Below, in pieces: positions 24,485-24,739 of a stretch of DNA of 64,000 nt. The position numbers and the translations under genes were made by a program. Location of the stretch: IMG/VR virus record IMGVR_UViG_3300044712_000786, positions 64,001 through 128,000 of that record; one strand, 5' to 3'. The notes under the pieces are model-generated. The model ran no database searches. It had not been told where the DNA came from and saw nothing but the letters and a program-made list of their open reading frames with translations. Origin of the DNA: a virus (Duplodnaviria > Caudoviricetes). Within the stretch, counting starts at the first letter, position 1, and the number at the start of each line of letters is the position of its first letter.

Positions 24485-24739
24485 AAAAAACCCCGCCAGT
24501 TTCCCAGCGGGGTAAATACCCTTGGTTCAGGTCATGACTCCCGAAGCAAGGTTATCTCAGGCAGCATCCAAGGCGAGATATCCAACATCGCCTTCATGGG
24601 TTAGCCGTTGGCGGCTGGGTCTGCCATATTGAAAATGATGGGTGGTTCAGCCCGAGTCTCTACAACCTAGGTCAATGGCCACTTCCCTAGAATTGCTGCA
24701 TGGTTTCAACAGCCGATTTATGCTATCTTTGCGCCACCC
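24485..24739 (-). ncRNA. Unidentified structured RNA (~255 nt) bounded by promoter and terminator
   Basis: TTGACA-N16-TAGACT-N6 then GGGTGG (no ATG); stems GGGTGG/CCACCC, GCTG/CAGC, CTAGG/CCTAG, GGCAG/CTGCC, AGCCG/CGGCT, AAGGCGA/TCGCCTT; terminator CCCCGC..GCGGGG-T6. Confidence 0.7.

Follow-up and report, generated by a model that had tools for sequence, protein, structure and literature searches.

The window analysed here, a stretch of 64,000 nt, belongs to a complete phage genome of 202,704 bp (G000) that has direct terminal repeats and numerous tRNA genes; the sequencing runs that match it best are rhizosphere metagenomes. The locus of interest lies inside a long minus-strand region of short genes, mostly with their own promoters. 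It holds a predicted stand-alone non-coding transcript of ≈255 nt (24485-24739, -), which we term RNA C, with RNA D (25355-25060, -) and RNA B (21678-21411, -) as its neighbors. The putative RNA C promoter (24746-24773, -) is of an early, sigma70-type class and combines a -35 box, TTGACA, a spacing of 16 nt, and a -10 box, TAGACT, matching the consensus at 10 of 12 positions with an extended -10. This class accounts for 41 minus-strand sites in the window versus 6 on the plus strand. An ATG follows the -10 box by 4 to 9 nt in 34 of the 41 minus-strand promoters, 26 of these at offset 6. Because most promoters of the class thus place an ATG at the inferred +1, the early genes (window 14000-29200, -) appear to be largely leaderless. 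RNA C differs in having a G, not an ATG, at the modal position, and we take this G (24739) as its +1, an unmapped start assigned from the modal ATG offset of the class.

Transcription would end at an intrinsic terminator (24485-24513, -) composed of a 10-bp stem (24513-24490), a GAAA loop, and a U-run, with a folding z score of -4.3. The promoter of the next gene (24469) lies past this terminator, so the RNA C unit leads to no gene and is not a leader. Within RNA C, the longest sense ORFs reach at most 21 codons, and the GC content is 51.8% versus 40.7% and 39.5% in the flanks. An earlier sequence-only reading of this DNA had reported an own promoter and terminator, the absence of an ATG at +1, and a GC-rich body in AT-rich surroundings; we located both signals (24773-24746 and 24513-24485) and confirm the other two features. 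On the strength of this DNA anatomy, RNA C is very probably a real noncoding RNA gene, and the form of its promoter suggests transcription by the host RNA polymerase. A near-perfect 16-bp DNA palindrome, possibly an operator, is also present just upstream of two promoters (24017-24032 and 25046-25061); one copy directly follows the RNA D terminator, and a similar word is found after that of RNA C.

The predicted fold of RNA C comprises three domains. Domain 1 (24640-24739, -) is closed by a 6-bp helix with a pairing probability of 0.88, and its inner fold, predicted from a single sequence, is uncertain (z = -1.25). Domain 2 (24560-24625, -), likewise predicted from one sequence, is a three-way junction bearing a CCAA-capped hairpin and a 7-bp hairpin (helix probabilities 0.88-0.96; z = -2.4), whose loops may form an additional CCAAC/GUUGG pair (24611-24607 with 24586-24582). 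Domain 3 (24520-24551, -) is a hairpin with an 8-nt loop in which AG precedes the palindrome UCAUGA (24539-24532). With pairing probabilities of 0.98 to 0.99, it is the best supported of the three domains, and it exemplifies an RNA module that is widespread in phages. The sequence-only reading had described two domains, and both are predicted here, including the GGGTGG/CCACCC helix closing domain 1 and the GGCAG/CTGCC helix closing domain 2 (mean pairing probability 0.88); the third domain (24551-24520) had been overlooked.

Since no homolog of the whole RNA was found, a single sequence is the basis for domains 1 and 2. Relative to shuffled sequences, RNA C folds with a z score of -2.5 to -2.6 when the terminator is included versus -1.05 when it is left out, in which case 30 of 200 shuffles fold as stably, so its folding stability by itself is not beyond chance. 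Its description as a stand-alone, unrecognized structured RNA is supported by the promoter-terminator anatomy and by the conserved hairpin module inside it. Most of the evidence for RNA C resides in domain 3 and the self-complementary loops.

A long-range GACTC/GAGTC pair loosely recalling P7 of group I introns had also been suggested, raising the question of whether RNA C derives from a group I core (P4-P6-P7), as a remnant or in stand-alone form. The complementary words exist: in domain 1, a word that we liken to the R element precedes GACUC, and the complement GAGUC is found 120 nt farther downstream. The predicted probability of their pairing is, however, 0.00, the outer pair of such a P7 would be a G.A (24660 with 24535), and GAGUC forms the top of the domain 3 hairpin, with the bases preceding it locked in the stem. 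Moreover, the group I model RF00028 gives no match at RNA C even at E ≤ 10. The core pairs, the J8/7 junction word, P1 and its internal guide, the exons, P9, and the terminal G are all missing from a unit that sits between its own promoter and terminator. We therefore set the P7 lead aside and assign the intron interpretation almost no likelihood.

Searches for the family of the whole RNA were uniformly negative. An Rfam scan returned no hit at the gathering score and, at E ≤ 10, sub-threshold noise only, in agreement with the earlier statement that no family was recognized, and RNA C has neither a tRNA cloverleaf nor tmRNA ends. BLAST against 50,697 phage records recovered no homolog of the whole RNA, and a model built from its single sequence (R1) found nothing in ≈2 Mb of loci, nor in G006, a syntenic relative of 209 kb. 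RNA C is absent from the nearest complete relative, which is syntenic and encodes a DUF932 protein 60% identical to that of our phage. Other assemblies of the locus represent the same strain, no close relatives of the two proteins flanking RNA C were found, and the one distant homolog of the 126-aa neighbor has no upstream gap of the size of the RNA. RNA C is either restricted to its lineage or too divergent for the searches made. The covarying homologs that the first reading had proposed to seek by BLASTn/nhmmer did not appear for RNA C as a whole, but a covarying stem did emerge for the domain 3 hairpin module.

The 209-kb relative contains another candidate RNA, RNA E (L171:10460-10595), of 130 nt, bounded by a promoter and a terminator, with a long helix closing its 5' and 3' ends and no Rfam match. 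It follows a gene positionally homologous to window 27788-28039, and where the relative has RNA E the window carries an opposite-strand gene for an HNH-type endonuclease (27087-27770, +). We considered RNA E as a relative of RNA C because of a short hairpin shared with domain 2 and rejected it: the alignment is at chance level (19/100), and a scan found only that phage. Downstream of the relative's DUF932 gene lies a long array of 12-bp repeats (L071:11040-11400).

The domain 3 loop recurs within the phage genome itself. A loop frame, GGAG-U-N4-A-CC, was defined on RNAs C and D before the copy in RNA B was found, and a scan of both strands of the 203-kb genome yields exactly three matches. All three have a self-complementary N4 (a 1 in 16 chance for each) and cap long stems in RNAs B, C, and D. 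The RNA D copy (25080-25091, -) caps the 3' hairpin with the palindrome UAAUUA, and the RNA B copy (21584-21595, -) carries UAGCUA on a 13-bp stem. As the frame was drawn from RNAs C and D, the RNA B copy is the sole independent test. In 30 Markov simulations of the genome the frame occurs 0 to 6 times with at most two palindromic instances, and in the related phage G006 it occurs three times with none.

The inner loop bases covary among RNAs B, C, and D (AU, AU, GC), including the central, adjacent pair. Adjacent bases are unable to pair within one strand, so their joint change argues for pairing between molecules. The same reasoning from changed palindromes supports the intermolecular bridges of OLE L9.3 and GOLLD L21a (10.1101/2024.12.08.627333). 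In RNA C, this pattern of a palindrome kept while adjacent bases change is seen for the domain 3 module only, and among paralogs rather than orthologs. The RNA C loop bases are predicted to be unpaired (P ≥ 0.98), and the calculated duplex energies favor loops of like with like (-5.4, -5.5, and -0.8 kcal/mol) over mixed pairs (+1.7, +0.2, and -0.1 kcal/mol). Because RNAs B and D set other palindromes in the same frame, each RNA would pair with its own kind only. The palindromes are AU-rich, and the kisses may accordingly be weak, with UAAUUA reaching only -0.8 kcal/mol. Taken together, these features make it probable that two RNA C molecules pair with each other through their domain 3 loops. 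A Shine-Dalgarno sequence with an AUG in the domain 3 loop was also considered and rejected, as the two are only 2 nt apart and the loops of RNAs B and D lack an AUG.

To place this hairpin among other viruses, we examined matches to the C-type pattern, which number 114 viral stretches; palindrome tests in unselected genomes are weak or negative, and no enrichment is claimed from this count. Among 55 distinct contexts, the stem extends outward from the pattern used for the search. Its first additional pair is Watson-Crick in 34 cases (against 14.4 by expectation; all four pair types; p < 0.0005) and G-U in 10, versus A-C in 1, and the next pair outward is Watson-Crick in 25 (p = 0.0005). The excess of pairing, with G-U tolerated and A-C hardly so, indicates a strand-specific RNA stem under selection. 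The contexts were chosen for UCAUGA, so what they prove is the stem and not the palindrome, and some may be chance matches since 18 of the 55 overlap an ORF of at least 100 codons by a crude count. The settings vary, from positions before terminators to tRNA clusters and apparent leaders. In 28 distinct module loci scanned, no significant Rfam family covers the hairpin, and a literature search by motif sequence and topic, with subscription journals mostly outside its scope, found no description of the module.

These data bear on two other explanations of the locus. RNA C could be the by-product of a regulatory spacer, in which the terminator insulates the next gene and the palindromes act as protein-binding sites in DNA. 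The z score obtained without the terminator and the absence of RNA C from the closest complete relative agree with such a spacer, which we nevertheless regard as very improbable: the next gene has its own promoter past the terminator, and the module behaves as RNA does, being asymmetric, with AG on one side only, and accepting G-U but not A-C. A second alternative is a monomeric decoy in which the palindrome is incidental and the domain 3 loop imitates the anticodon loop of tRNA-Met (U-CAU-R-A), baiting a host anticodon nuclease or a tRNA-binding defense factor. U-CAU-G-A is one base off that loop, and UCAUGA is invariant in the 55 contexts, 8 of which lie within 120 nt of a T-arm word. The invariance, however, follows from the search pattern, the loop has 8 nt with two leading purines instead of 7 nt, and the loops of RNAs B and D have a U where tRNA position 37 is a purine, their changes preserving self-complementarity instead. 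The RNA1 region of phage T5 (AY543070.1), when inspected, contained no loop of this kind. The anticodon decoy is therefore an unlikely explanation, albeit a less remote one than the spacer.

Outside the RNA C genome, two of the palindromes recur together in a tandem family of 13 members (L248, L254, L261, L272, L275, L280, L284, L289, L291, L299, L302, L315, and L323; alignment A3), in which a stem with a 9-nt UAAUUA loop is followed by the 8-nt UCAUGA hairpin. D-type and C-type loops are thus adjacent, with both palindromes invariant and covarying stems: 97% of stem positions are paired, six pairs have changed on both sides, and none of 500 shuffles does as well. The 9-nt loop variant carries an A or C on the 3' side of its palindrome. 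In the loci scanned, the family resides among tRNA genes of large phages, and five members scanned have no Rfam match. Two distinct self-complementary loops in one RNA could build chains or rings. When applied to RNA C, the tandem-family model (R2) matched only a 20-nt hairpin (24545-24526; 19.1 bits), the two-hairpin architecture being absent, and beyond this hairpin RNA C shares nothing with the module-bearing RNAs compared.

Elsewhere, locus L266 has an AGCU copy of the loop near its CAUG copy. An unrelated phage also has an AG-UAGCUA hairpin ahead of a head-tail gene (L112:5086-5100, -), where it overlaps a weak, below-threshold match to the Mn riboswitch (E = 0.01). In the unselected tests, 272 bacterial genomes gave 106 frame matches, of which 12 are palindromic against an expectation of 6.6; the corresponding counts are 0 of 7 in 50 viral records, 3 of 16 for stable hairpins outside the seed set, and 0 of 39 for a looser frame. 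With results this weak or negative, the module must be uncommon, and the main basis for the palindrome rule is the RNA C genome together with the tandem family. Overall, the module appears to be an uncatalogued RNA hairpin with a palindromic loop, widespread in phages, and RNA C is probably a new noncoding RNA that carries it.

Two further loops of RNA C contain palindromes. The apical loop of domain 1, of 14 nt, contains UGGCCA (24676-24681, -), and an 11-nt loop of domain 2 has GAUAUC at its 3' end (24577-24582, -), each known from a single sequence. Of its four apical loops, RNA C thus has three with a 6-base palindrome; among 300 shuffles, 40 had one such loop and none had two. Palindromic hexamers are at the same time depleted in the phage genome (observed/expected, 0.57). 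We tentatively suggest, at somewhat less than even confidence, that the loops of domains 1 and 2 also pair and add further bridges. With regard to short palindromes in general, G000 has no GATC in its entire 202.7 kb, contains few CCGG (47) and GTAC (81) sites, and lacks 21 palindromic hexamers altogether, a pattern that points to strong restriction avoidance.

Domain 1 and RNA D also share a 12-mer (24723-24734, -, and 25112-25123, -). A genome scan allowing one mismatch finds no copy besides these two, an exclusiveness to RNAs C and D with p = 0.005. The 12-mer resembles J11/12 of RNase P, sharing 10 of 13 positions with the E. coli element when one gap is allowed, and contains an AGNNA T-loop word. 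AGNNA...UGNNA is the signature of the interdigitated double T-loop, the element that RNase P, the L1 stalk, and T-box stem I have in common (PMC3664808). RNA C has AGAUA (24728-24724) and UGAAA (24708-24704), and RNA D has both words within a hairpin head resembling T-box stem I. These RNAs could therefore clamp the tRNA elbow, the 12-mer and the UGAAA of domain 1 forming a double T-loop, which would be compatible with self-association through domain 3. The bare signature, however, is present in 60% of domain 1 shuffles, so the 12-mer is a lead for a binding face and not a result. No other RNA with the two words in this arrangement was found in the collections scanned, and RNAs C and D lack the other elements of RNase P, rRNA, and T-boxes. 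We consider the elbow clamp improbable, more so than the anticodon decoy.

Several other accounts were rejected. Mimicry of RNase P or rRNA by sequence finds no backing in whole-RNA alignments to E. coli RNase P RNA, 16S, 23S, and 5S rRNA, which do no better than chance (26-35 of 100 shuffles align equally well). Nor is the 12-mer to be read as a Bacteroidota -7 promoter box on the reverse strand, since promoters of the phage have the form TTGAC/TAnnnT, or as an antisense seed, since the genome contains no complement to it elsewhere within one mismatch. Pattern scans with the 12-mer and its partners in viral, metagenome, and genome collections returned only chance hits in genes or Bacteroidota promoter words. 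RNA D (25060-25355, -) merits description in its own right as a second stand-alone RNA with the 12-mer, the T-box-like hairpin head, and two palindromic loops. Its best local alignment to E. coli 5S rRNA, one of many comparisons, beat 99 of 100 shuffles, and it has words like CR-I and CR-V of RNase P with a poor P4. Three soil runs from one study, labeled transcriptomic but flagged as probably DNA, each contain one short identical contig lying wholly inside RNA D (25163-25336) and nothing else of the stretch. None of the four runs compared with the window covers RNA C, an absence that says nothing about its expression.

The explanation of RNA C that we favor, with a confidence slightly above even, is that of a small, self-associating early RNA acting through kissing loops. 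The host RNA polymerase would produce it as a stand-alone noncoding transcript that starts at the dedicated promoter and stops at the dedicated terminator, and the product would fold into three domains. The domain 3 loop, offering two purines and a 6-base palindrome, would then form a symmetric kissing complex with a second copy, as the palindrome-preserving variation suggests. The palindromes of domains 1 and 2, each seen in one sequence, may add a second and a third bridge to give a multiply bridged dimer or a higher oligomer; with three self-complementary hairpin tips, copies of RNA C probably stick together. The most likely purpose of such an assembly would be to engage a host component of RNA binding or translation early in infection, as a stable, multivalent decoy or scaffold, with the 12-mer common to RNAs C and D as a candidate binding face. 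This role is speculative, and we hold it with less confidence than the additional bridges.

Among known RNAs, a close parallel is the HIV-1 dimerization initiation site, DIS/SL1, in whose manner the domain 3 loop would work. There, a flanking purine also follows the hexamer on its 3' side. RNA C has a 5' AG only, its 8-nt loop having no 3' flanking base; the 9-nt form occurs in RNA D and in the tandem family. Both DIS/SL1 and domain 3 present a purine-preceded 6-base palindrome in an apical loop on a stable stem, with the palindrome varying and self-complementarity kept, although flanking purines are essential in DIS (PMC7357161). Furthermore, DIS is a GC-rich element of a genomic leader, whereas the RNA C loop is AU-rich and belongs to a small stand-alone phage RNA, and descent is not implied.

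Synthetic RNA nanostars offer a second parallel, as single strands with several arms tipped with 6-base palindromes and with orthogonal variants (PMC11567899). Nanostars are designed, four-armed, and use one GC-rich palindrome on all arms, whereas RNA C has three different, weaker palindromes, and its assembly is a prediction. RNA C could nonetheless be a natural nanostar in which each of three arms kisses the same arm of other copies to give a network or condensate, with RNAs B and D forming separate, orthogonal assemblies through their own palindromes in the common loop module. We think this improbable, falling between the anticodon decoy and the elbow clamp in likelihood; if such networks do arise from the three arms, they would represent a natural equivalent of the RNA condensates made by design.

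Self-assembly is rare among natural RNAs, and the phage RNAs known to show it are large. OLE, GOLLD, and ROOL are, like RNA C, stand-alone noncoding RNAs of bacteria or phages (10.1101/2024.12.08.627333; PMC12990946), and OLE L9.3 and GOLLD L21a form symmetric kissing loops that vary from palindrome to palindrome, as in the domain 3 module. RNA C differs from these RNAs in its length of 255 nt versus 550 to 830 nt and in that no pseudoknotted, ornate core is seen. The homodimeric ARRPOF, at 255 nt, is of the same size as RNA C (PMC12990946), and the Rfam models for GOLLD, ROOL, OLE, and ARRPOF all fail to match RNA C. If our interpretation is correct, a short, portable kissing-loop module that recurs in unrelated phage RNAs, with its own palindrome for each RNA in one genome, would constitute a simple phage code for RNA-RNA assembly, and the loop frame would provide a sequence handle for finding further such RNAs. 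With respect to large phage RNAs, the relative G006 also contains a large, ORF-free, structured stretch after two tRNA genes (G006:C1:17681-18400; L205) that appears GOLLD-like by eye.
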